DNA of 64,000 nucleotides from assembly GCA_965602635.1 (NCBI GenBank), contig CBFCZU010000001.1, forward strand, positions 3,522 to 67,521, in the 5' to 3' direction. The position numbers and the translations under genes were made by a program. The notes below the pieces were generated by a model. It was not told where the DNA came from. It saw only the letters and a program-made list of their open reading frames with translations, and did no database searches. Numbering within the stretch: the first letter of the stretch is position 1; every line of letters begins with the position of its first letter. Shown here piece after piece: positions 3 through 62,386 of this stretch. Source of the DNA: an uncultured Planctomycetales bacterium. Its GTDB lineage: Bacteria; Planctomycetota; Phycisphaerae; SM23-33.

Positions 3-135
3 GCCGACGGGCGGGAAGTGGCCACCATCGATGCTCCCCAGTGCAAGCGCCGCTCGATCATCCTCGACCGCAACAGCCTCAAGCTCTTCCGGCGTTCGCT
101 GTCCGAGGGGAACTTCCACGCCGCCTGGCGATGAA
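3..135 (+). CDS. 3' end (last 44 codons) of an upstream gene; product unknown
   Basis: Frame 3 is open from the window edge to TGA at 133-135 (…ADGREVATIDAPQCKRRSIILDRNSLKLFRRSLSEGNFHAAWR*); a sigma70-like promoter follows immediately. No family recognised. Confidence 0.3.
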
Positions 136-15275: not shown

Positions 15276-16390
15276 TTCACCGGCTCCTCTTGACCTGCCT
15301 GGCGGCGGCGGCTCTGGCCGCCGGCGAGCGCGGGCCTGCAAGCCGGCCCGCGACGGCCCCGGCCGTGGTCGAGCCCGAGGCCGCCCGCGCCTTCCGCGCC
15401 CTCTGCGCCGCCAAGGCCGCCGCCGCGGAAAAGGCCGGCAACTTCACAGCCGCCGGCAGGGACGAGTGGCTCTTCTTCGGTCCGGAGCTGCGCCACCTGG
15501 GCATCGGGACCTTCTGGGGCGGCGCGGCGGCGAAGGTCTCGCTGGCGTCAAAGAGCGACTGGGCCGACCCGATCGGGGCCATCCTCGACTTCAAGGCCCA
15601 ACTCGACCGCCTGGGCGTCGAGCTGATCTTCCTGCCCGTCCCGCCCAAGGCGATCATCTACCCCGACAAGCTTTCCGATAAGGTCGCCGTCGGCAAGGAC
15701 GGGATGCCGCCCCGGCTGGACACGCATCTCCGCGCGTTCTACAGGCTTCTCCGGGCCAGGGGGGTGGACGTCCTGGACCTGACCGACGAGTTCCGCAGGC
15801 AGCGGAAGCGCCTGGGCGGGAAGCGCAAGCTCTACTGCCAGTCTGACACGCACTGGTCGCCGACGGCCTGCTGGGTCGCGGCCCGGGCCATCCGCCGGCA
15901 CATCAAGGCGCGACCGTGGTTTGTAAAGCTCGCGCCGAAGAAAGGGCCGTTCTCTTTCTCCGGGCGGAAGATCACCATCCACGGCGACCTCTGGCGGATG
16001 CTGGGCCGAGAAGCATCCGCCAGGGAGACGCTCACCGCCCGCTACGTCTGGTACACCAATGACAAGGACCGCAAGGGCGTGCCGGACGACCGGAGCAGCC
16101 CCATCCTGCTGCTGGGCGACAGCCACTGCCTGGTCTTCCACGGCGGCAAGGAGATGCACGCCGCGGGCTCGGGCCTGGCCGATCACCTGGCCTGGGAGGC
16201 GCACAGGCCGATAGACGTGCTCGGCGTTCGCGGCTCCGGGGCCACGGCCTCGCGGATCAGCCTCTACCGGCGCGGGCGGCGCAGCGAGGGCTACCTTGCC
16301 GGCAAGAAGCTCATCATCTGGTGCCTGTCGGCCCGCGAATTCACCGAGGCCGACGGGTGGCGAAAGGTGCCGCTGGTCAAGCCCATGTAG
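15272..16390 (+). CDS. AlgX/AlgJ-like SGNH O-acetyltransferase, periplasmic paralog
   Basis: 372 aa; GAGGAGG RBS and ATGA overlap with the previous gene; cleavable signal MIHRLLLTCLAAAALAAG; …LYCQSDTHWSPTA… and …LLLGDSHCLVFHGG… motifs. Confidence 0.7.
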   Translation: MIHRLLLTCLAAAALAAGERGPASRPATAPAVVEPEAARAFRALCAAKAAAAEKAGNFTAAGRDEWLFFGPELRHLGIGTFWGGAAAKVSLASKSDWADPIGAILDFKAQLDRLGVELIFLPVPPKAIIYPDKLSDKVAVGKDGMPPRLDTHLRAFYRLLRARGVDVLDLTDEFRRQRKRLGGKRKLYCQSDTHWSPTACWVAARAIRRHIKARPWFVKLAPKKGPFSFSGRKITIHGDLWRMLGREASARETLTARYVWYTNDKDRKGVPDDRSSPILLLGDSHCLVFHGGKEMHAAGSGLADHLAWEAHRPIDVLGVRGSGATASRISLYRRGRRSEGYLAGKKLIIWCLSAREFTEADGWRKVPLVKPM

Positions 16391-16565
16391 CCGGCAGGCG
16401 GGGTGCATTAAGGTTTTGGGGGTACTGACCGCGGTGGCACACCTGCCTGCCGGTCAGGCAGGGGTTTCCAACCTGTGCGCCTGGACAGCCGGGCGCGTGC
16501 ACAGGCTACAAGCCTGTGCCACCAGAGCCCCATCCCCAAAACCTTAATGCACCCCCGGCAGGCGG
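16391..16565. mobile_element. MITE-like element: 11-bp direct repeats (ccggcaggcgg) flanking 21-22 bp terminal inverted repeats (gggtgcattaaggttttgggg) around a ~110-bp hairpin-rich core
   Basis: Seen directly: left DR 16391-16401 and left TIR 16402-16422; right TIR 16534-16554 and right DR 16555-16565. Internal perfect hairpins include CAGGCTacaaAGCCTG and cctgcctg…caggcagg. Confidence 0.55.
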
Positions 16566-16599
16566 TTTGGGCTTGCCTCGGGCGGCGTCCTGGGGGACA

Positions 16600-18333
16600 A
16601 TGTCTGTGAGGGAAAGAGGGCCGGGAATGTCCGCGCGACCTGACAGGAAGAGGCGTGCCAAACGAGGCCCGTCGCGCGTCCAGGCCGCCCTTCGACGGGC
16701 CCGCGTGCGTTGGGGGCTGAACCTGTTGCTCCAACACGCGGCCGTGGGTCTGCTGGCGGCCGGGCTGGCGGTCGCCTTGGCCGTCGCGGCCGAGCGGACG
16801 ATGGCCGTCACCGTCGTGAACCTCTGGACGGCCGCCGCCCTTGGCGGGGCGGTCGTCCTGGCCACCGTGGGGTGGTGGTATCTGACCTTTCCCAGCCGGA
16901 TGCGCGTCGCCGTGATGGTCGATGAGCGCCTGGGCCTGCGCGAGCGATTCAGCACAACCCTGGCATTTGCCGGCAGCGCCGACCCGTTCGCCGAGGCGGC
17001 CCGGTCCGAGGCCCGGGGGAAGGCGGCCCGCCTCCGGCTGCGGGAGCGGTTCCCGATACGCCTGTCGCGCCGGTGGGCGCTGACGGCCACGGCGTGGGCG
17101 ATCGCCGCGGCGGTCATCGCCTTCCTGCCGACGATGGACCTGCTGGGCAGCCTGGCGCAGCGACTCCGCCAGGAGCAGCGGCAGACCCAGCTCTCCGAGG
17201 CCCGCGCCGAGGTCCGCCAAGCGGCCCAGGCCGTCCAGGCGAAGGTCGGCGAGCTGGGCGACGCCGAACTCACTGAGGACCTGGCGGGCCTGGAACGGAT
17301 CGAGGCCGCCCAGGGCAGCGACGTCCGCCGCCAGGCCATCCGCAAGCTCGGCGATCTCTCCGAGCTGCTCAAGAAGAAGCTCTCCGCCGATGAGCTGGCG
17401 GCGACCCATGCAATGCGGCAGATGCTCAAGGGCCTGCGCGGCTCCCGCGAGGCGCTGTCCCGCGAGCTGAGCAGGGCCCTTGCCAAGGGAGACTTCGCCG
17501 CCGCGGCCGAGATGGTCAAACAGCTCCAGAAGAAGCTCGCCGAAGGCAAGCTGTCTGACCAGGAGGCCCAGGCCATGGCCAAGCAGTTGGCCGATCTCGG
17601 CAAGCAGCTTGACGACTTGGCCGAGAAGCAGAAGGAGGCCGAGAAGCTCCTCGAGCAGGAGGGGCTGGACAAGAAGCTCGCGAAGATGGGCCAGAAGGAC
17701 TTGCGGCAGGCGCTCAAGGACAAGGGGCTCAGCGACGAGGAGATCGAGAAGCTGATGCGCAAACTCGCCGCCTGCAAGGCTGCCTGTGAGAACTGCCGCG
17801 GCCTGGCCGAGGCCCTCGCCGGGGCGGGCGAGGGCATGACGCTGACGCCCGAGGAGCTCGCCGAGCTGCTCGACCGGCTCGAGGAGCTTGATGCGGTCGC
17901 CGGCAAGCTGGAGGCGGCCCAGGACTCGCTGGAGGAGATCGAGCGTGCAATCGCACTGCTGGGCGAGGGCGACTGCGAGGGGGGGGGGGCCGGCGACTGG
18001 CGGCCGGGGCTGGCTCTGGTGCAGGGCCGGGGCACCGGCGGGCCCGGCCGAGGGGCCGGTCCTCGCAAGGAGGACCCCAGCGGCCTGACGGGCACGAAGG
18101 CGACTCGCAGCCCCTCCCAGACCGGCAAGGGCAAGATCATCGCCGCCTCGTACTTCAAAGGCCGGCAGGTCAAGGGGGAGTCGAAGAAGGACTTCGCCAG
18201 GGTCGCCCAGGCAGCCAGGGACCGGGCCGCCGACGCCATCGACGAGAACAAGATTCCCCGGAAGTACGCCCCGGCCGTGAAGGACTATTTCGACAAGTTC
18301 AATAGGTCCGGCGGCCGAGAGAAGCCGCAGTGA
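16600..18333 (+). CDS. membrane-anchored coiled-coil protein, unknown function
   Basis: Two N-terminal TM helices, then a long Ala/Glu/Lys/Leu-rich coiled-coil (…KQLADLGKQLDDLAEKQKEAEKLLEQE…) and a Gly-rich C-terminal region. Start moved from the ORF-track 16516 to ATG 16600 because the upstream part overlaps the MITE. Confidence 0.5.
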   Translation: MSVRERGPGMSARPDRKRRAKRGPSRVQAALRRARVRWGLNLLLQHAAVGLLAAGLAVALAVAAERTMAVTVVNLWTAAALGGAVVLATVGWWYLTFPSRMRVAVMVDERLGLRERFSTTLAFAGSADPFAEAARSEARGKAARLRLRERFPIRLSRRWALTATAWAIAAAVIAFLPTMDLLGSLAQRLRQEQRQTQLSEARAEVRQAAQAVQAKVGELGDAELTEDLAGLERIEAAQGSDVRRQAIRKLGDLSELLKKKLSADELAATHAMRQMLKGLRGSREALSRELSRALAKGDFAAAAEMVKQLQKKLAEGKLSDQEAQAMAKQLADLGKQLDDLAEKQKEAEKLLEQEGLDKKLAKMGQKDLRQALKDKGLSDEEIEKLMRKLAACKAACENCRGLAEALAGAGEGMTLTPEELAELLDRLEELDAVAGKLEAAQDSLEEIERAIALLGEGDCEGGGAGDWRPGLALVQGRGTGGPGRGAGPRKEDPSGLTGTKATRSPSQTGKGKIIAASYFKGRQVKGESKKDFARVAQAARDRAADAIDENKIPRKYAPAVKDYFDKFNRSGGREKPQ

Positions 18334-38194: not shown

Positions 38195-38268
<74 letters not shown>

Positions 38269-38315: not shown

Positions 38316-39612
38316 CTGTCCTTCCCGAAAACCTCATCCGCACAGGAAGCAACGGCCTTGCGGGCTTGACTGTGGGGCCGGCGGGGATGATCGGCGCGTG
38401 ATCGGAGTGGTCGGCGATGCCGGGGGCGCTTGAGCATGGCCAAATCTGGGCATGGCGCATGGTTCTCTCGTGTGCCAGACGGGACAGGATTGATGCGGGT
38501 CCGCTACGCCGCTCTCGTGTAGCGGTGGTGCAGACCACCGAGATACGCCTTGGCTACGACCTTGCCCTGCGCCGGCGGGCAGACAGGCCGAGTAAACGGC
38601 GAGTTGCGTTCCAGCGACAGGTGCAACCGCGCCTCGTGATAATAGGTGAAGAATTCGGACAGCGTGCGGCGTAGATGATCCTCGTTCAGCACGATCAGGT
38701 GGTCCAGGCATTCACGGCGGATGGATCCGATCAGACGTTCCACGTAGGGATTCTGCCAAGGAGCCCGTGGCGCAATGAGCACTTCCTCGATCCCCATGTG
38801 CTCCACCCGGTCACGGAAGTCCTGGCCGTAGATGCCGTCGCGGTCGCGAAGCAGAAAACGAGGAACTTGGTCGTAAGGAAATGCCTCTACGATCTGCTGA
38901 GCAGCCCACTGGGCGGTGGGGTTGGCCGTCACGTTGAAGTGGACCGCTTGGCGGCGATCATGCCGCAGGATGAGGAAGACGTACAGCACGCGGAACGTCA
39001 CCGTCGGAACCGTGAAGAAGTCGACGGCCGCGATCTGGCGGGCGTGATTCTTCAGGAAGGTTCGCCAGTTCTGGGAAGGCGCCTTGGGCTGTCGGATCAT
39101 GTACTTGGCGACCGTGGATTCGGCCACCGCGTGGCCCAGCAGAAGCAACTCGGATAGAATCCGCGGGGTGCCCCACATCGGGTTCTCGCGAGACATGCTG
39201 ACCTTCTCCACGAATGGTGGGCGCGGAGCTTGTGGTTATCCGGTCATGCTTTCGAACTCGGCGGGGCTGACGTAGCCCAGCGTCTCGGGCTGGACAAGGG
39301 CCAGCGCTGACCGCCAACCTGACCAGAGCCTCGACAGCCAGACCCAGAAGATCCGGTCCCGCGTGCGGAGTTTGGGGCGCTTGACGGAGCGCTGGAGCAC
39401 AGCGATCTAGCGCCGCAGGGCCAGGTTCTCGGCCATTAGTGCGGCACGACCGGCAAAGAAGCCTCGAACGAACAACCACACTGCCTGAAGAACGGCCATC
39501 CCTGAACCTCCGTTGCCGAGATAAACAGCCGGATCCTACGGCCGATGAGGCTCTGCGGCAACGGTGCAAGCCCTTCACCTGCAAGGTGGACGGAGTTTTC
39601 GGGAGGGACAGG
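38316..39612 (-). mobile_element. defective IS481-family insertion sequence (~1.3 kb) with ~20-bp imperfect terminal inverted repeats
   Basis: Right end ctgtccttcccgaaaacctc (38316-38335) matches the reverse complement of the left end (…ggagttttcgggagggacagg ending at 39612), about 17/20. It contains the transposase pseudogene below. It lies 10 bp past the tRNA-Arg terminator. Confidence 0.6.
38504..39436 (-). pseudogene. IS481-family DDE (rve) transposase, disrupted by two in-frame stop codons
   Basis: One reading frame from ATG 39436 to stop 38504: MAENLALRR-TAG-IAVLQRSVKRPKLRTRDRIFWVWLSRLWSGWRSALALVQPETLGYVSPAEFESMTG-TAA-PQAPRPPFVEKVSMSRENPMWGTPRILSELLLLGHAVAESTV… rve core …LGGLHHRYTRAA*. 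The segment between …LVQPE and SRENPMWG looks internally deleted or rearranged. Confidence 0.65.
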
Positions 39613-55491: not shown

Positions 55492-56784
55492 ATGCACTCC
55501 TCTGCGGGCAGCCGAGTTGGGATCGCCAAGGCCTTGCTGAGTTTGGCCCTGCTGCCAGCGGCGGCGGACAGACGTGCTGGGGCCAAGGACTGGCCTCAGT
55601 GGCGGGGGCCCCGGCGCGATGGGGTCTCCGCCGAGAGTGGCTTGCTCAAACGCTGGCCCACGTCCGGTCCGAAGCTGTTGTGGGTTACTGAAGGCCTTGG
55701 TTCCGGCTGGGGCTGCCCGGTCATCGCCGGCAAGAGGATCTACGTCACCGGCAAACTAGGCAGGGAAGGCCTGCTCTTTGCTCTCGACTTGGACGGTCGC
55801 GTGCTGTGGAAGAAACCCTACGGCCTTGAGTGGAGCCGGAACTACCCCGGCGCCCGCCATCCGCCAACATTCGACGACGGCAGCGTGTATGTGATGAGCG
55901 GCCGGGCCGGACTGACCGCCTTCGACGCCCGCAGTGGGCAGCAGCGGTGGTCGGTCGATCTGCTCGAGCGATGCGGCGGCCGGCTGCTGGGGTTCGGGTT
56001 TACCGAATCAGTGCTGATCGACGGCGATCGACTCATCTGCTCCCCCGGGGCCCCCGATGCGTCGGTCGTCGCCCTCGACAAGCGCAACGGCAAGACCGTC
56101 TGGACGAGCAAGGGCCTCAGCGATGCGTACGGCTACTGCGCGCCGCTGCTGGTCGATCATGGCAAGACCCGTTTGGTTGTGACCATGACGGGCACAGCGA
56201 TCGTCGGCATCGAGGCCGCCACGGGCAGGCTGCTCTGGCGTCATCCCTACCGCAACAGGAACGGCGGCCATCACATCACGCCCATCTATCACGAGGGACG
56301 CGTGTTCGCCACGTGTGGCTACGGCAAAGGCGGCGTGATGCTGAAGCTGTCACCGGATGGTCGACGGGTGACCGTTGTGTGGACCAATCCTCGCCTGGAT
56401 CCTCACTATGGCGGCGTCGTGCTGCTGGACGGGCACCTGTACGGATCCACGCACAAACGCAAGACGTGGGTATGCCTCGAGTGGGCCACCGGCAAGCTCT
56501 GCTACGAGGAGAAAGGCGTTGGGAAGGGCTCCGTGGCCGCGGCCGACGGAATGCTGTACTGCTACGGCGAGAATGGAGTGGTCGCCCTTGTCAGGCCAGA
56601 CCCGAAGCGCTTCGAGGTGATCAGCTCCTTTCGGATCAGGTGGGGCACAGGCCAGCACTGGGCACATCCGGTGATCTGCGGCGGCCGGCTTTATATACGG
56701 CATGGCGACAGTCTGATGACCTTCGACGTCAGGGGCGGTGCGGGTCTTGCTGGAGACTCCAACGGCCCAGCCGCCCGCGACTGA
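55492..56784 (+). CDS. PQQ-repeat beta-propeller protein (BamB-like/PQQ enzyme repeat), secreted
   Basis: 430 aa from MHSSAGSRVGIAKALLSLALLPAAA; repeated …DWPQWRGPRRDGVS…, …GRVLWKK…, …GRLLWRHPY…, …GKLCYEE… propeller blades. Confidence 0.7.
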   Translation: MHSSAGSRVGIAKALLSLALLPAAADRRAGAKDWPQWRGPRRDGVSAESGLLKRWPTSGPKLLWVTEGLGSGWGCPVIAGKRIYVTGKLGREGLLFALDLDGRVLWKKPYGLEWSRNYPGARHPPTFDDGSVYVMSGRAGLTAFDARSGQQRWSVDLLERCGGRLLGFGFTESVLIDGDRLICSPGAPDASVVALDKRNGKTVWTSKGLSDAYGYCAPLLVDHGKTRLVVTMTGTAIVGIEAATGRLLWRHPYRNRNGGHHITPIYHEGRVFATCGYGKGGVMLKLSPDGRRVTVVWTNPRLDPHYGGVVLLDGHLYGSTHKRKTWVCLEWATGKLCYEEKGVGKGSVAAADGMLYCYGENGVVALVRPDPKRFEVISSFRIRWGTGQHWAHPVICGGRLYIRHGDSLMTFDVRGGAGLAGDSNGPAARD

Positions 56785-56966
56785 AGCAGATACCAGCGGG
56801 CGGCCAGAATCGCCTTCTGGGCCGTCCCAGACGAAACATGTAGGGGCTGAGCAAGAACGCCTGGGCCGTGGCGAACCCCCTCATGCCGAAGGTGCAGGCC
56901 GACAGGCAGGGCACTGACGGCAGGGGAGGCCAGAAGAGTGCTGGGGCCTGATTCCACCCGCCGGGG

Positions 56967-57164
56967 TCATACCCCGGAGGTCGCGATTCCCCCCCAAATT
57001 GTACATCAAACTGTACATCATTTTCTGGTAAACATGGTAAACATGGTAAACATGTGATACATGGAACGTCGATCGGAATTCGTAACGTGTTGTGGTTTCG
57101 TTAGTCCCGATCTGACAACTCTTTACGGGGAGGCCTTCGGGGTCTCATAACCCGGAGGTCGCGG
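56967..57164. repeat. two direct copies of a 19-bp tRNA-Met-like core (tcata[c/a]cccggaggtcgcg) flanking an AT-rich patch with tandem repeats
   Basis: Core copies at 56967-56985 and 57146-57164. Between them: tgtacatca x2 (57000-57008, 57012-57020) and ggtaaacat x3 in perfect tandem (57027-57053). Local GC is far below the window average. Confidence 0.6.
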
Positions 57165-57166
57165 AG

Positions 57167-57406
57167 GTGAGCAAGGGCGCCAAGGCCTGGACGGCCGAGT
57201 TTGCCATCCCATTCAAAGAGCTGGTCGAGGACCCCAAGAAGCTCAATCGTGCCTGGGCGGTCAACTTCGGCCGGATGGCGTACCTGCTTGCGCAAACCGA
57301 GGACACCGCCTGGAGCCCCGTGGGCCAGACAGACTCTCACCTTCCCGCCAAGTTCGGCTGCCTGTGGCTTGACGTCGGGAGGATGGAAAGGACGGTAGCC
57401 AAGTGA
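57167..57406 (+). pseudogene. C-terminal fragment of a CBM9-like domain
   Basis: 79-aa ORF …WTAEFAIPFKELV…WAVNFGRM…AWSPV…HLPAKFGCLWLDV… resembles the C-terminal strands of CBM9/DOMON-like modules. It begins exactly at the second att-like core with no N-terminal part. Confidence 0.4.
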
Positions 57407-57752
57407 ACGGTCGATATGTCGCATGGATCGCGATCCCCTGTATCTGTGGAATTGGGGGTCCCGTTCCTGTGCCTGGGGATGGGGCCGCCACCGATCAGCC
57501 GTATAACACGGGCGACGAGCAATGGGTCTTCAACGATAACTGGCGCAACCGCAATTCAAGGAGTGGATCGGGCAAGTCGTCGGGAAGGAAGGAGAGGATG
57601 CCTGTCGTCACGACAAGTGGTGTTGCATGATGTATCCGAGGCTGATGCTGCTCCGTGACCTACTAAGGCATAGCAGCACCTTGGAGGCCTACCTGCGCGT
57701 GATCAAGCTTCTCCGGAGATTTCTATACCGATCGGGACAGTAGCGCAGACCG

Positions 57753-60704
57753 TTAGTCCAAGACACTAACGCGAATCTCGAATGCTTCCGATTTTTTCAA
57801 CGTCACATAGGCGCGGACCGGCTTGTAGTTGTTCTCGAATCTCAGTTTATAGGGGTTGAACAACTTGTTGTCTTTCTGGATCTCTACGGGCCGGCTGCAC
57901 TCCAGGAGGACACTGTTGAATCTCAGCGTACTGTTGCCCTTCCGCACCTGGATATCGCTCGACCTGCGCACGCCGGGGAAGAAGCTGTAGACGACAGGCT
58001 CGTCTCCCTCGGCCGAGATGAGCTCGACGATTACCTTCGCGGCCTTGGGGCCTGTCACTTTGCAGCTGAGCTTGACCGAAAACGACTTGTAGGTCAGAAG
58101 CACGTCGTGCCCGTTGGCTGCCGATTGGATCTTGCCATCGGCGGGCAGGAACTCTGTCTGATCCTTCAACTTCCTCATGAAGGATCCGCCGGTGGGATGC
58201 TGCTGGGAGTTGTTCCCCCACAGAATCGGTCCAGCCTTCGCGTGGTGGATCTCTATGGCGTTCTGCGGGTCCAGCACGTACTTGTCGATAATGGGTTCCA
58301 GAGACACAGCCGACATGCCATATATGAATCCTTGCTGCCTTGCAATGAGGGCTTTGTTCTTGAGGAAATAGAACTCTTTCTCTTGCGGCCAGTCCCGTTC
58401 GTCGCCCGGCATGAAGTAGTTGGCAATGTCTGCGGCGCCACTCCAGAAGCCAGGCCCGGCCTGGCTTGGCCGACGATCGGGGTTGATGACATGAAGCAGT
58501 CTGACGCGCGCGAGTCTTCGGCCCTGCGGCGTCAGCGACAGGACGAAATCGCCCTCGCCGATCATTGGAAGCATGTAATAATTCTGGCGTCCGTCGTGCA
58601 GGCAGATCTTGAAGCCGTCGGGCAGGGAGGTCTGACAGCCGAATCGTACGCAATCGAGAAGTGCCGGTAGGACCTGCTTGTCGCGGCTGCGAAAATAGTA
58701 GTGTCCTACCGCGCTCATTGTTGTCCAGGTGTAAGCTGTAGCGGAAATGCCTTCTCGTTCTGCGAATTGGCCGTTTTCAGCGTGTCTGGCCAGACCTCGC
58801 ATCAGCTTTCGCCCATATCGCCGCCACTCGGGCCTATCAAACACTACACCGGCTGTATAGACGCTGGAAAGGTAGTGAGAGAACACATTCGTGCCGGTCC
58901 CCACGTCCCGCGTGTAGAATGTCTTGTTGTCGAGGGCCGGGGTGATCCAGATTCTAGCCAGTTCCTCCGACAGCTTCAGCAGGCGCCTTCGCCAGTAGGC
59001 TGCCTGCTGAGGTGGGATGTCGTCCTTCAGCAATTCATAAGTCAGCAGATATGGCTGCACGTACCAGGCAGGTGGGCGTTCGAGCATCTTGTGCCAGTTT
59101 GCCGGATCCAGCGCCTCCTCCATTCTCGCCCTGGCCTCGTTCAGGAAACGTTTGTCGCCCTTGTAGGGGTTCTCAGGCCAAGCGGACTTGTACACCACGG
59201 CGAGCGGATAGGCCATCCCGCCTGACGGAATGAACCTGTAGTAGTTGATGGCGTCGGCGAGTCCCGCCCTGTACATGGCTCGCGTGGGGAGCTTTTCGAT
59301 GCCCGGCCGAAAACGGTCGTACGCAACCTTACCTACGCCCAGAACGCAGGCTCGCAAGGCGGAAATCCGAATCGGTTTGGATTGATCCTCGCCGATAAGG
59401 GCCGTCGCCTCGATCTCTACCTCGCCGGTGACGGGGCTGTGAGGCAAGTCCAGCGTGTGTACGCCCGCCCTGAGATGGGCTACGCCCTTGCCCACAATCT
59501 TGCCTTGCCGTCGCGCCGTCAGCGTGGCTCTGGTCGATGTGCCGGCCGTGGTGTTCAGCGCGATGCGAAGTCGTATGGGCTTACTGACGTCATCCTGGAA
59601 AGGCTCAGTCACCGTAAGGATAAGGCCCCTGCGTACCTCGGCTGCGTACTGTACAGCTTGCGAACCATCCGGCGCCTGTATCTTCAGCCGTGCGGTACCA
59701 TGGCGCCCTATCGGGACAATGGCCTTGCCGCCGGGATCGACGACAATTGCCTTACCGTCGACGAAAAAGGTGTAACCGTCTCGCCAATGCTCCAGCAGAA
59801 TATTGTTGACGCCAATGGCCAGGCTGGACGATGGCTTTATCCGCGGGCGCGGCCGGGCCGGGCGATTGACTACAGTCAACGGGTTGAAGCGGTGCGGCAT
59901 GTTCGTGGGATATCTGAGGCGGTCAAGGCCCTTCCAGAGGTCTACCCAGGCATACTCGGACCGGTCGGCCGGCCGATTGCGGACAACATTGCCATAGAGC
60001 GTCTTATCCGGCAGATTGTGCTTCGCCAGCGGAAGAACAAGCCCAAGCCGCCAATTGTCCTTGCCGACCGCGGTTCGTACCGTGATCGAGGAGGTGTCAA
60101 CAGGCACAACGGCCGCTGGATAGTCGCCAGCAGAGCCTGGCTGTGGGTACGCCTGCCACTCAATATGGCGCCCCGATATGGTCCGATCGGCAACCAGGGC
60201 ACCGGCGGCGTTTATCAGCAGGTGAAGATAGGGATATGATCGGTCCGATTCCTCGGCAAGGAGCAACTCGATCGAGTCGTCCTGCCAGATATCCGTATCG
60301 TCCGCCCCCGGGGTAAGTGTTGTGATATCGGGCTCGAGGCATTCGGCAATGATATAGAGCGACCCCTTGTATCGCAGAAATCGCAAGGTTGTCCGTCGCT
60401 TGGGAGGCTCGGGCACGCCTTGCCTATAGAAGGGCGTCATCAGTTCCGCCGATTCCCAGACGCCCGATGCAAAAGCCTCGCCCAGATCGAGAGAGGGCGG
60501 GGTGTCAACTTGAAGAATCCTGTAGGCGGGCTCCATTGGCCAGATTGGCGCATGTTCGATCGCCTGGGACTCCTGGACGCCAAGGGCCGGCGCCCTGTCC
60601 TGGGTTGTGCCTGGCGAGTGCGGAGAACATGATACTAGAGGCAGCAACAGGCATAATGCCAGGAGGCTAATACCGCATAGAAACCTGGAGGACCGTGTGT
60701 TCAT
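57753..60704 (-). CDS. secreted polysaccharide-lyase-like lipoprotein (heparinase II/III-like core with CBM9-like N-domain), paralog 2
   Basis: 983 aa; lipoprotein signal MNTRSSRFLCGISLLALCLLLPLVSCSP; AGGAG RBS; homologous throughout to 51861-54827. Confidence 0.6.
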   Translation of the reverse strand: MNTRSSRFLCGISLLALCLLLPLVSCSPHSPGTTQDRAPALGVQESQAIEHAPIWPMEPAYRILQVDTPPSLDLGEAFASGVWESAELMTPFYRQGVPEPPKRRTTLRFLRYKGSLYIIAECLEPDITTLTPGADDTDIWQDDSIELLLAEESDRSYPYLHLLINAAGALVADRTISGRHIEWQAYPQPGSAGDYPAAVVPVDTSSITVRTAVGKDNWRLGLVLPLAKHNLPDKTLYGNVVRNRPADRSEYAWVDLWKGLDRLRYPTNMPHRFNPLTVVNRPARPRPRIKPSSSLAIGVNNILLEHWRDGYTFFVDGKAIVVDPGGKAIVPIGRHGTARLKIQAPDGSQAVQYAAEVRRGLILTVTEPFQDDVSKPIRLRIALNTTAGTSTRATLTARRQGKIVGKGVAHLRAGVHTLDLPHSPVTGEVEIEATALIGEDQSKPIRISALRACVLGVGKVAYDRFRPGIEKLPTRAMYRAGLADAINYYRFIPSGGMAYPLAVVYKSAWPENPYKGDKRFLNEARARMEEALDPANWHKMLERPPAWYVQPYLLTYELLKDDIPPQQAAYWRRRLLKLSEELARIWITPALDNKTFYTRDVGTGTNVFSHYLSSVYTAGVVFDRPEWRRYGRKLMRGLARHAENGQFAEREGISATAYTWTTMSAVGHYYFRSRDKQVLPALLDCVRFGCQTSLPDGFKICLHDGRQNYYMLPMIGEGDFVLSLTPQGRRLARVRLLHVINPDRRPSQAGPGFWSGAADIANYFMPGDERDWPQEKEFYFLKNKALIARQQGFIYGMSAVSLEPIIDKYVLDPQNAIEIHHAKAGPILWGNNSQQHPTGGSFMRKLKDQTEFLPADGKIQSAANGHDVLLTYKSFSVKLSCKVTGPKAAKVIVELISAEGDEPVVYSFFPGVRRSSDIQVRKGNSTLRFNSVLLECSRPVEIQKDNKLFNPYKLRFENNYKPVRAYVTLKKSEAFEIRVSVLD

Positions 60705-60843
60705 TCTTTTTCTCCTAGCCCACCTTATTCACGAAGTAACGAGCCTAGCGGGCGCAAGTGGTATGAACTGACAAGGTTACGACAAGAATCCGGCGGCTTA
60801 CGCCATACTTCGTTACGGCCGCGGAGCGGCGTTGACAGTCTGT

Positions 60844-61611
60844 TCAGGAAGATCGGACCGCCAGCATGCACCAGGTGTGAACAAAGGTGCTCTCGCTGCC
60901 GTGGAAACTCAGTTCAATGCCGGCGGTTCGCCCGGTCTCGCAATAGGCCCTCATGACCCCCAATACCAGGTCTGCTCGCCCCGGACTGTTGGTGATCGCA
61001 ATCCAATCCTTGAAGTCACGCCGGGTCCTCCATACGCGATCGGAGACAACTTGCAGGTCAAGTTGCCGGACGATGCCGTGCAGTTCCGATATCGGCATGG
61101 CGCGGACATGGGATGGATCGCGCAGGGTCTCCAGGGCGTTGTGCAGGCCGGCTTCCACCTTGTTCTCGCTCGTCACGATGTCAGCCAGGACAACCATGCC
61201 CCGGCGTCTGGTCACGCGGCGGAGTTCCGCGACGGCCCGAATCGGGTCCTCCAGGTGATGCAGGGCCAGTCGGCAGAAGGAGGCATCGAAATGCCCATCG
61301 GGATACGGGATGCTATCGATGTCCCCACACGCGAACTCCACGTTGCAGGCATGCGCGTCGCGGCATCTTTGTCGAGCCAGATCCAGCATCCGCTCGGTCA
61401 GGTCCAGAGCGACAAGTCGCCCGACTATCGGCGCGACCGCCACAGACAGAAGGCCCGGGCCACAACAGGCATCCAGGACAACGTCGTCAGCCTGTACGCC
61501 GCTGGCCGACAGGATGTGGTTGATGGATTCCTTCTGTCGGAGAGACAGCGACGCGGCGAAAGCCTCCGCCTGTGCAGCGAACTCTCTCTGAACGCGCTGC
61601 CTATGGTCCAT
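60844..61611 (-). CDS. class I SAM-dependent methyltransferase (Methyltransf_11/UbiE-like)
   Basis: 256 aa from MDHRQRVQREF… (ORF-track start is 61824); SAM motif I …VVLDACCGPGLLS…, post-I …ALDLTERML…, motif II …HFDASFCRLALHHL…. Confidence 0.7.
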   Translation of the reverse strand: MDHRQRVQREFAAQAEAFAASLSLRQKESINHILSASGVQADDVVLDACCGPGLLSVAVAPIVGRLVALDLTERMLDLARQRCRDAHACNVEFACGDIDSIPYPDGHFDASFCRLALHHLEDPIRAVAELRRVTRRRGMVVLADIVTSENKVEAGLHNALETLRDPSHVRAMPISELHGIVRQLDLQVVSDRVWRTRRDFKDWIAITNSPGRADLVLGVMRAYCETGRTAGIELSFHGSESTFVHTWCMLAVRSS

Positions 61612-61882
61612 CCGAAAGGGCCTCCTCGGGTATCGGGCAGCCAGGCGGCTGGCCAGAGGAGGTTCGCTGCATCTGGCCACCAGCCGGACGCTGAGCATAG
61701 CCATCTTCTCAAGCCCCGGCAAGTGAACTGACGCATGGAACGGACCAACGCAATCAGAGCCGGCCGCGCCTATGTGGAGCTGTTCACCAAGGACGGCCGA
61801 CTGGTGAAGGGCTTGCCCCTCCAAATTCCGTCCGCAGGATCGCTCCTACGGCTTCTGGCACGGCTCGTAGCCCGTCGCTACA

Positions 61883-61990
61883 ATGCCCCGTCCCATGAGA
61901 CCTTGGACATTCTTTCTGGCAGCCATCGCGGGATGGATGAACCGCAGGCAGCAGGAGGTCATCGAGTATCTCAGGGAGGAGAGCGGCCGG
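61883..61990 (+). pseudogene. second, internally deleted remnant of the same transposase N-terminus
   Basis: MPRPMRPWTFFLAAIAGWMNRRQQEVIEYLREE then a ~150-bp deletion relative to 55131-55390; DNA similarity is obvious on alignment. Confidence 0.45.
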
Positions 61991-62386
61991 GCGGACTGCT
62001 CAGGAGCCACTGCCGCGAGGCGGCCTGAGGCTCGGACGCAACCTGGAACCCCTGCTGTCTTGCAGTGCAGCAGCCCAGCAAGAGCTCCTGCCGAACGAAC
62101 GCTTCTCACTGCCCACTCTCTTGGGGCTGCAGCGATGGCAATGCATCTGTCGTAGGCAAGAGACGCCGTTCGATTGAGGCCGTCAGCGAAGCTGCATGCG
62201 CTGCCGTTTCTCGGACCTGCTCTGCCCCGTTCAGACGACTACCGGGACTACCGGATTAAGGTCGAAATACCGCGTCTACTCGCAACTGTATGCGTCTGTT
62301 TGCTACCCTTTGCGAAAGTGCCCCAACCTGGTAAGATATTGTAGGCAAAGCACTCATGGGCTTTTCGGCGGAGTGCTTACGTCGCC

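Follow-up and report, generated by a model that had tools for sequence, protein, structure and literature searches.

The locus and the element

In the 64-kb stretch of DNA analysed here (the window), a gene cluster of the AlgI(MBOAT)-ALGX-ALGX type ends at a TAG stop codon (16388-16390), and between it and the next gene on the same strand lies a gene-less element of 154 bp, delimited by the ends GGGTGC...GCACCC of a repeat family, which is very probably a miniature inverted-repeat transposable element (MITE). The features of the locus are collected in Table 1; loci outside the window are designated by L numbers.

Table 1. Coordinates of the MITE-like element, its target duplication and the flanking genes in the window
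Feature	Position	Strand	Remarks
Upstream gene, second ALGX-domain (AlgJ/AlgX-like SGNH) protein, 372 aa	15272-16390	+	Open reading frame list, translation
Left copy of target-site duplication, 10 bp	16391-16400	.	CCGGCAGGCG
Element, 154 bp	16401-16554		Family ends GGGTGC...GCACCC
Left terminal inverted repeat	16401-16421	+	GGGTGCATTAAGGTTTTGGGG; 21/21 identity with both ends of the 1389-bp insertion sequence (L086, L136-L145)
Non-coding G+C-rich core of hairpin modules	16422-16533 (112 nt)	.	e.g. GGTGGCACA...TGTGCG, GCACAGGCTACAAGCCTGTGCCAC
21-nt palindromic insert in the core	16442-16462	.	CCTGCCTGCCGGTCAGGCAGG; also in L094, missing from the 134-bp relative L038
Right terminal inverted repeat	16534-16554	-	CCCCAAAACCTTAATGCACCC (as read on the + strand)
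Right copy of target-site duplication, 10 bp	16555-16564	.	CCGGCAGGCG
Promoter-like site of downstream gene	16573-16578 (-35), 16596-16601 (-10)	+	TTGCCT, 17-nt spacer, GACAAT
Downstream gene, coiled-coil/membrane protein, 568 aa	16627-18333	+	Start ATG 16627

The inverted-repeat arms (16400-16421 and 16534-16555) are 22 nt long, 100% complementary and spaced by 112 nt, G16400 being the base that lengthens the complementarity of the left arm to 22 nt. A third site for the 22-mer was not found in the 64-kb window with up to three mismatches allowed, and 0 of 100 shuffled windows contained two matches to it. The terminal repeats are approximately 50% G+C, the surrounding window approximately 70%. 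The segment folds with a free energy of -111.4 kcal/mol (z = -7.4 relative to shuffles). No transposase gene was revealed by tblastn or by the list of open reading frames (ORFs), either in the element or in the rest of the 64-kb window, and a scan of positions 16100-16900 called no consensus promoter or intrinsic terminator in the element, which has no U-tract.

A first-pass annotation had described the segment as hairpin-dense, free of a transposase, placed right after the algX-like stop codon and bounded by perfect terminal inverted repeats of 21-22 bp that are AT-richer than their surroundings, and on all of these points the description holds, the duplicated target abutting the TAG codon directly. 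Its "153-bp core" fits the whole element in size, while the core between the repeats measures only 112 nt. The suggestion that the element might supply a promoter or terminator was not borne out: no consensus site lies inside it, and the adjacent promoter-like site is already present in relatives that lack the element.

The palindromic insert contains, at 16445-16453, the exact reverse complement of the 9-mer CCGGCAGGC, which is found in the target (16391-16399 and 16555-16563). This internal 9-mer is shared by the sister copy at L094, which occupies another locus, and so it was not copied from the target in the window; its match to the target is either a coincidence or an unexplained affinity.

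Target-site duplication and empty site

An 11-bp direct repeat, CCGGCAGGCGG, stands at 16391-16401 and 16555-16565 and overlaps the inverted repeat by 1-2 G/C, its 11th base being the first G of the terminal repeat. The exact 11-bp repeat reported in the first pass is therefore real, while the duplicated target is 10 bp (range 9-11), or possibly 9 bp should one terminal G/C be part of the element. The end comparisons neither support nor exclude such an extra terminal G, and the duplication is reported here as 9-10 bp.

Of the 73 family elements assessed (see below), 23 are flanked by an exact 9-bp duplication and two by one of 8 bp, and in many others 7-8 of 9 positions agree.

Orthologous loci were found by means of the upstream ALGX protein: L135 and L133 (87% identity) and L134 (63%). 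At the junction, L135 and L133 both have TAG-CCGGCATGCG / TCGGCACGCG, with a single copy of the target, the bases that follow being given as GTTTGGGCTTGCC or GTTTGGGCTTGCCT, and the remainder of the intergenic region aligns with that of the window. This is the empty site with one target copy that had been predicted. The element is also missing from the more distant L134. The insertion postdates the split from the relatives at 87% identity.

In L135 and L133 the uninterrupted junction forms a small hairpin, CAAGCCCA...TGGGCTTG, across the stop codon. Its arms correspond to window positions 16378-16385 and 16568-16575, it overlaps the -35-like TTGCCT, and the insertion falls in its loop.

Other copies and the MITE family

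The closest copy is at L094, in a different metagenome, where a 154-bp element identical at 153 of 154 positions (99.4%) lies in the opposite orientation between unrelated flanks. At L038 a 134-bp copy, 85% identical and again with different flanks, is without the 21-nt insert.

Species-representative genomes were queried with the end variant present in the window, GGTGCATTAAGGTTTTGG. This gave eight single matches, of which seven are apparently due to chance and one is real (L006, in a metagenome-assembled genome of the Phycisphaerae). The scan missed the family because its commonest end variant reads AAC where that of the window reads AAG. The element at L006 is 100 bp long; its left end is the same, its right end is degenerate, and it contains two 24-nt hairpin units in tandem.

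Metagenome contigs were then scanned with a degenerate pattern built from the ends of the window element and L006; the family statistics given throughout, including those on duplications above, are drawn from the matches listed. At least 120 metagenome loci carry the family ends, all of them on contigs of 53-71% G+C, the commonest end being GGGTGCATTAACGTTTTGGGG. Both ends, with mismatches allowed, are present in 76 elements, which fall into length classes of approximately 95-100, 131-134, 153-156, 179-182, 199 and 226-246 bp. In their cores, short G+C-rich hairpin modules are combined in varying number as a mosaic. Contigs often stop inside family elements, and of four independent assemblies covering the window's own locus three do so as well; this is the usual signature of a repeat and accounts for the assembly breaks at this locus. 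Lack of other copies, combined with conservation of the segment in relatives, had been named beforehand as the outcome that would speak against a mobile element; the opposite was found on both counts.

The assemblies of the window's locus that stop within the element (L009/L010, 14356-14428; L011, 4888-5046) show internal variants. L009/L010 have a T>C change in the left repeat, and L011 has an extra base (GCCGGCCCGCG versus GCCGGGCGCG in the window) that is also present in L038.

At L019 (80-1788) a transposase gene of the IS110 family (NF033542, 153 bits) lies between two ends of the MITE family. The outer 27-30 nt and the last ~115-125 nt match the 133-bp class of MITE, indicating that an IS110-type element inserted just inside a MITE terminal repeat to give nested mobile elements.

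The probable autonomous partner

At several loci (L070, L075, L086, L108, L123 and L132) the same ends stand 1363-1397 bp apart around one long ORF, thus supplying the autonomous partner whose existence had been proposed. The encoded protein of 421-445 aa scores 250.8 bits with NCBIfam NF033572 (ISKra4 family transposase; cut-off 205) and 71 bits with Pfam UPF0236; its score with the ISLre2 model, 111 bits, is below the cut-off of 200. It carries a D-x2-H motif (DFYH).

The ends of a 1389-bp variant (protein P0183) are identical to those of the window element over the full 21 nt, and over 23 nt on one side. Beyond these 21-23-nt ends the two have no sequence in common. The P0183 insertion sequence (IS) occupies at least three insertion sites across samples ERZ25073474, ERZ25073485, ERZ25073490 and ERZ25073496, and ERZ25073474 also contains L010, a contig of the window's locus. 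Approximately 300 transposase homologs were found at E <= 1e-30, nearly all on contigs of 1.4-2 kb, as is typical of a repeat that assembles alone. An internal-deletion intermediate of 451 bp (L118) has the N- and C-terminal coding ends of the transposase fused.

At L123 a degenerate 96-bp member (317-412) lies 8 bp from the full-length 1397-bp IS (421-1817), with a promoter-like site on the far side of the 96-bp element; this looks like repeated insertion in one promoter-proximal region.

Promoter register of the family

The 168 distinct flanks were read outward from each element end. They are enriched in TTG at +17 to +19 and in TAnnnT at +40 to +45, a signal that corresponds to a sigma-70-type -35 box, a 17-nt spacer and a -10 box directed away from the element. 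TTG begins at +17 in 40 flanks, at +16 in nine, at +18 in six and at +19 in five, compared with ~2.5 at other offsets, and the strict pattern TTGNNN-16..18-TANNNT occurs 31 times at +17 and 0-2 times at offsets outside the 16-18 peak. With a requirement of at least 8 of 12 consensus positions, 63 of the 168 flanks have a site in register versus 2-3 in windows shifted by 12-18 nt; at 9 of 12 or better the figures are 40 and 2 (Fisher p = 4e-11). The modal distance from the element end to the -35 box is 16 bp.

The signal is one-sided for each element and may be on either side, seldom on both. Of the promoter-bearing flanks that could be classified, 39 of 41 lead into an ORF that points away from the element and is supported by third-position G+C (GC3) and codon bias. 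In the other flanks the genes either point away or, in about half, run toward the element and end 1-117 nt short of it. From this layout the insertions of the family are intergenic.

In the asymmetric 100-bp subfamily (L006, L027, L034, L035, L044, L065, L076, L089, L098, L101, L103 and L131) the promoter is beside the better-conserved end at approximately nine loci and beside the other at approximately two. The count, which is below significance, hints that insertion of this subfamily is oriented, as for elements with unequal inverted repeats.

Next to the window copy, the weak promoter-like site TTGCCT-17-GACAAT (Table 1) is regarded as the probable promoter of the downstream gene. The promoter scan of 16100-16900 did not call it, since it falls below the threshold of 9 of 12 used there. 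Both hexamers are invariant in the empty-site orthologs L133 and L135, and the promoter-like site is therefore older than the insertion.

Interpretation and rival explanations

We conclude, with a probability of roughly 0.92, that positions 16401-16554 are a non-autonomous MITE of an IS of the ISKra4 group (p-MULT 4, with a Mutator-like DDE transposase) in a Phycisphaerae-like genome, the host assignment resting on protein names and on L006. The terminal repeats, the duplication, the empty site, the other copies and the partner IS were all found, so that the original designation as a MITE stands. The gene-less element would retain only the 21-nt ends recognised by the IS-encoded DDE transposase, arranged around its core of hairpin modules. 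A transposase supplied by a full-length IS copy elsewhere would have cut out or copied the element and inserted it by cutting the target in a staggered manner, so that 10 bp were duplicated; we infer that the transposase identified here is the one which mobilised it. This enzyme would set elements at a fixed distance, usually 16 bp and here 18 bp, upstream of a sigma-70-type -35 box. Promoter-proximal targeting of this kind would explain why the copy came to lie between the ALGX stop codon and the next promoter-like site with neither disrupted. The effect on expression is most likely nil, or limited to mild insulation or to stabilisation of the upstream transcript by a hairpin at its 3' end.

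Several observations weigh against this conclusion. The window, all 64 kb of which was searched, holds just one copy of the element. The duplication at the window copy is 10 bp, the usual length in the family being 9 bp. Its promoter-like site is 18 bp from the element end, at the edge of the family distribution, and matches the consensus at 8 of 12 positions. The partner IS is tied to the same metagenome sample, not to the same genome, and in the PLSDB plasmid collection, where no close relative with a name turned up, the nearest annotated ISKra4-family transposases are cyanobacterial and approximately 30% identical. Finally, a matching duplication is missing from several IS copies of full length and from the sister copy at L094; where the IS copies are concerned, this is best put down to chimeric assembly of a multi-copy repeat, which was seen directly at L137/L142, where L142 joins the left flank of one site (also found in L140) to the right flank of the L137 site.

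The copy might have been maintained for a function rather than as a neutral passenger, having been co-opted either to block read-through as an insulator or to stabilise the 3' end of the upstream mRNA. If transcribed, it would place a very stable hairpin (-111 kcal/mol) right after the stop codon, and many copies are probably co-transcribed as 3' ends, given the genes that run toward elements and stop 1-117 nt before them in about half of the non-promoter flanks; effects on the stability of mRNA or on termination are known for other bacterial MITEs (Correia, ERIC, REP/BIME). We nevertheless regard co-option as unlikely. The element is without an intrinsic-terminator-like site or U-tract, it is missing from the two nearest orthologous loci although these have the same promoter-like site, and the known target choice of the transposase would fully account for the fixed position. 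Moreover, among 14 distinct copies of the 100-bp subfamily, which vary little and to that extent limit a covariation test, changes in the long terminal stem are one-sided or break pairs and are in no case compensatory, and only two inner pairs show compensation. There is no signal of selection on RNA structure. The same lack of compensatory change in the long stem speaks against a locus-specific, immobile regulatory RNA, such as a riboswitch-like leader or a terminator of the flanking genes, to which the strong predicted fold and the intergenic position just upstream of a gene might have pointed. Such an RNA would hardly be missing from the orthologous loci, recur in near-identical form at unrelated loci beside unrelated genes, be flanked by a target duplication and share its ends with an IS. 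The region gave no real Rfam match at E <= 10, the hits being microRNA noise, and at the gathering threshold the whole window yielded only a tRNA. This reading is as good as refuted, and what separates the O-acetylation cluster from the next gene is a recent insertion rather than a regulatory RNA.

Two further explanations concern the kind of mobile DNA involved. In-place decay, by which a full-length IS inserted here and was then deleted internally without the copy ever moving as a MITE, has a precedent in the family in the form of L118, with its fused transposase ends. It is highly improbable for the window copy, which has only the 21-23-nt ends in common with the IS, and all 154 bp of which recur at L094 with one mismatch and at L038 with 85% identity, from which it follows that the short form itself was copied. 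A repetitive extragenic palindromic (REP) sequence, or a bacterial interspersed mosaic element (BIME) made of these, spread by a REP-associated tyrosine transposase (RAYT; IS200/IS605-like) and not derived from a DDE transposon, would give a core that is a mosaic of short G+C-rich palindromic units in varying number, and the core is indeed superficially BIME-like. REPs, however, do not have long terminal inverted repeats or target duplications, whereas 9-bp duplications are the rule here and the ends are the same as in a DDE IS. The hairpin units gave 13-24 matches in approximately 20 kb of element sequence versus 5-9 in the other ~680 kb examined, and outside the element they are absent from the 64-kb window. 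An origin of this sort is scarcely credible. The units were also considered as an independent REP-like family, which was rejected as they are concentrated within paired elements (a host RAYT was not searched for).

Comparison with known systems

Insertion 13-17 bp upstream of sigma-A -35 boxes has been described for TnGBS/ISLre2 (p-MULT 3) and for the ISKra4 group of p-MULT 4 (Guerillot et al. 2014, PMC3942029). According to the same study, ISKra4-group elements with near-perfect inverted repeats (IRs) insert in both orientations, their IRs of 18-39 bp end in C, their direct repeats are 8 or 9 bp, and the hosts of p-MULT 4 include Planctomycetes among other phyla (PMC3942029). The study also links promoter targeting to a sequence signature, a conserved Asp between domains N1 and N2. 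ISKra4 and ISLre2 are found preferentially 50-250 bp from genes (PMC9208149). These published features of the ISKra4 group were recovered independently here, which supports the family assignment. That group includes ISKra4, ISCasp2 and ISLfe1. The present family resembles it in that its partner IS scores above the NF033572 cut-off and carries the D-x2-H motif, its IRs of ~21 nt end in C, its duplications are 8-9 bp and, with near-perfect IRs, its insertions stand ~16 bp upstream of a -35 box that may face either end of the element. The window element differs in being a 154-bp non-coding derivative rather than an IS, and in its 10-bp duplication and 18-bp promoter distance. With TnGBS/ISLre2 the present family shares the choice of a target 15-17 bp upstream of sigma-A promoters and a Mutator-like DDE transposase, but those elements belong to another transposase family, insert in an oriented manner with the right inverted repeat (IRr) beside the promoter, and are large integrative and conjugative elements or ISs of Firmicutes, whereas the window element is miniature and belongs to Planctomycetota. 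PMC3942029 makes no mention of MITE derivatives, and the literature searched contained no MITEs of TnGBS, ISLre2, ISKra4 or Planctomycetes, which is absence of evidence only.

The similarity of the window element to the classical bacterial MITEs and related repeats is of a general kind. Correia/NEMIS of Neisseria, ERIC, RUP, BOX, Nezha and Chunjie are short and non-coding, have terminal inverted repeats and target duplications, are multi-copy and intergenic, can fold into long hairpins and depend on an IS transposase acting in trans. In BOX elements, as in this family, the ends are conserved and the internal modules between them vary in number. The parents of the classical MITEs, in contrast, are ISs of the IS630/Tc1, IS5, IS200/605-like and other types, and their targets are usually short, for example TA; we know of none that inserts at a fixed distance from a promoter. 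With REP/BIME the window element has in common the G+C-rich palindromic units, the mosaic structure and an intergenic position, often at the 3' ends of genes, and it differs in that REPs are linked to RAYTs while its own terminal repeats match a DDE IS.

The elements form a large, diverse and apparently undescribed MITE family, derived from ISKra4-group elements in metagenomic genomes of Phycisphaerae type, that retains the rare promoter-proximal target choice of its parent IS. As this choice has already been published for the IS family, specialists will be only mildly surprised. In practical terms, the insertions point to sigma-70-type promoters (TTGAC-17-TAnnnT) in a lineage for which promoter data are almost lacking, and with the MITEs one has a minimal substrate on which the way these transposases locate promoters can be studied. 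Tentatively, and with far more doubt than confidence, we suggest that the 21-nt ends alone suffice for promoter-directed insertion by the ISKra4-group transposase, the targeting lying wholly in the protein and plausibly acting through promoter-bound sigma-70/RNA polymerase, as proposed for TnGBS. If so, each insertion would tag a real promoter 16 bp away and the family would provide a promoter map for uncultured G+C-rich Phycisphaerae; some copies might then also be co-opted insulators between the 3' end of one gene and the promoter of the next.

Neighbouring genes

The upstream gene is the last of the AlgI(MBOAT)-ALGX-ALGX cluster, PF16822 and PF03062 genes being called on identical contigs, and homologs of its product carry the names AlgJ and AlgX. 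The downstream protein has no match to a Pfam family. In the ORF list the downstream gene begins at GTG 16516, within the element, which had been recognised in the first pass as a spurious N-terminal extension; the element-free orthologs indicate that this start is an artefact of the insertion and point to ATG 16627. The latter is preceded by AAAGAGG (16613-16619), is the called start in L135 and is kept even in the 63% ortholog L134. Since the -10-like box overlaps a further ATG at 16600, the gene most likely starts at 16627, and its annotation should be changed accordingly from 16516.

Elsewhere in the window

A tRNA-Arg(ACG) gene (38195-38268) is followed by a minus-strand ORF with an rve_3 integrase-core domain (38504-39208). 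The G+C content is 0.61-0.63 at 38-44 kb compared with ~0.68-0.71 in the first 36 kb, and this stretch may represent an IS remnant or an island beside the tRNA gene, unrelated to the ISKra4-type element. Lower G+C content (0.59-0.61) is seen a second time at 56001-62000, near the end of the window.

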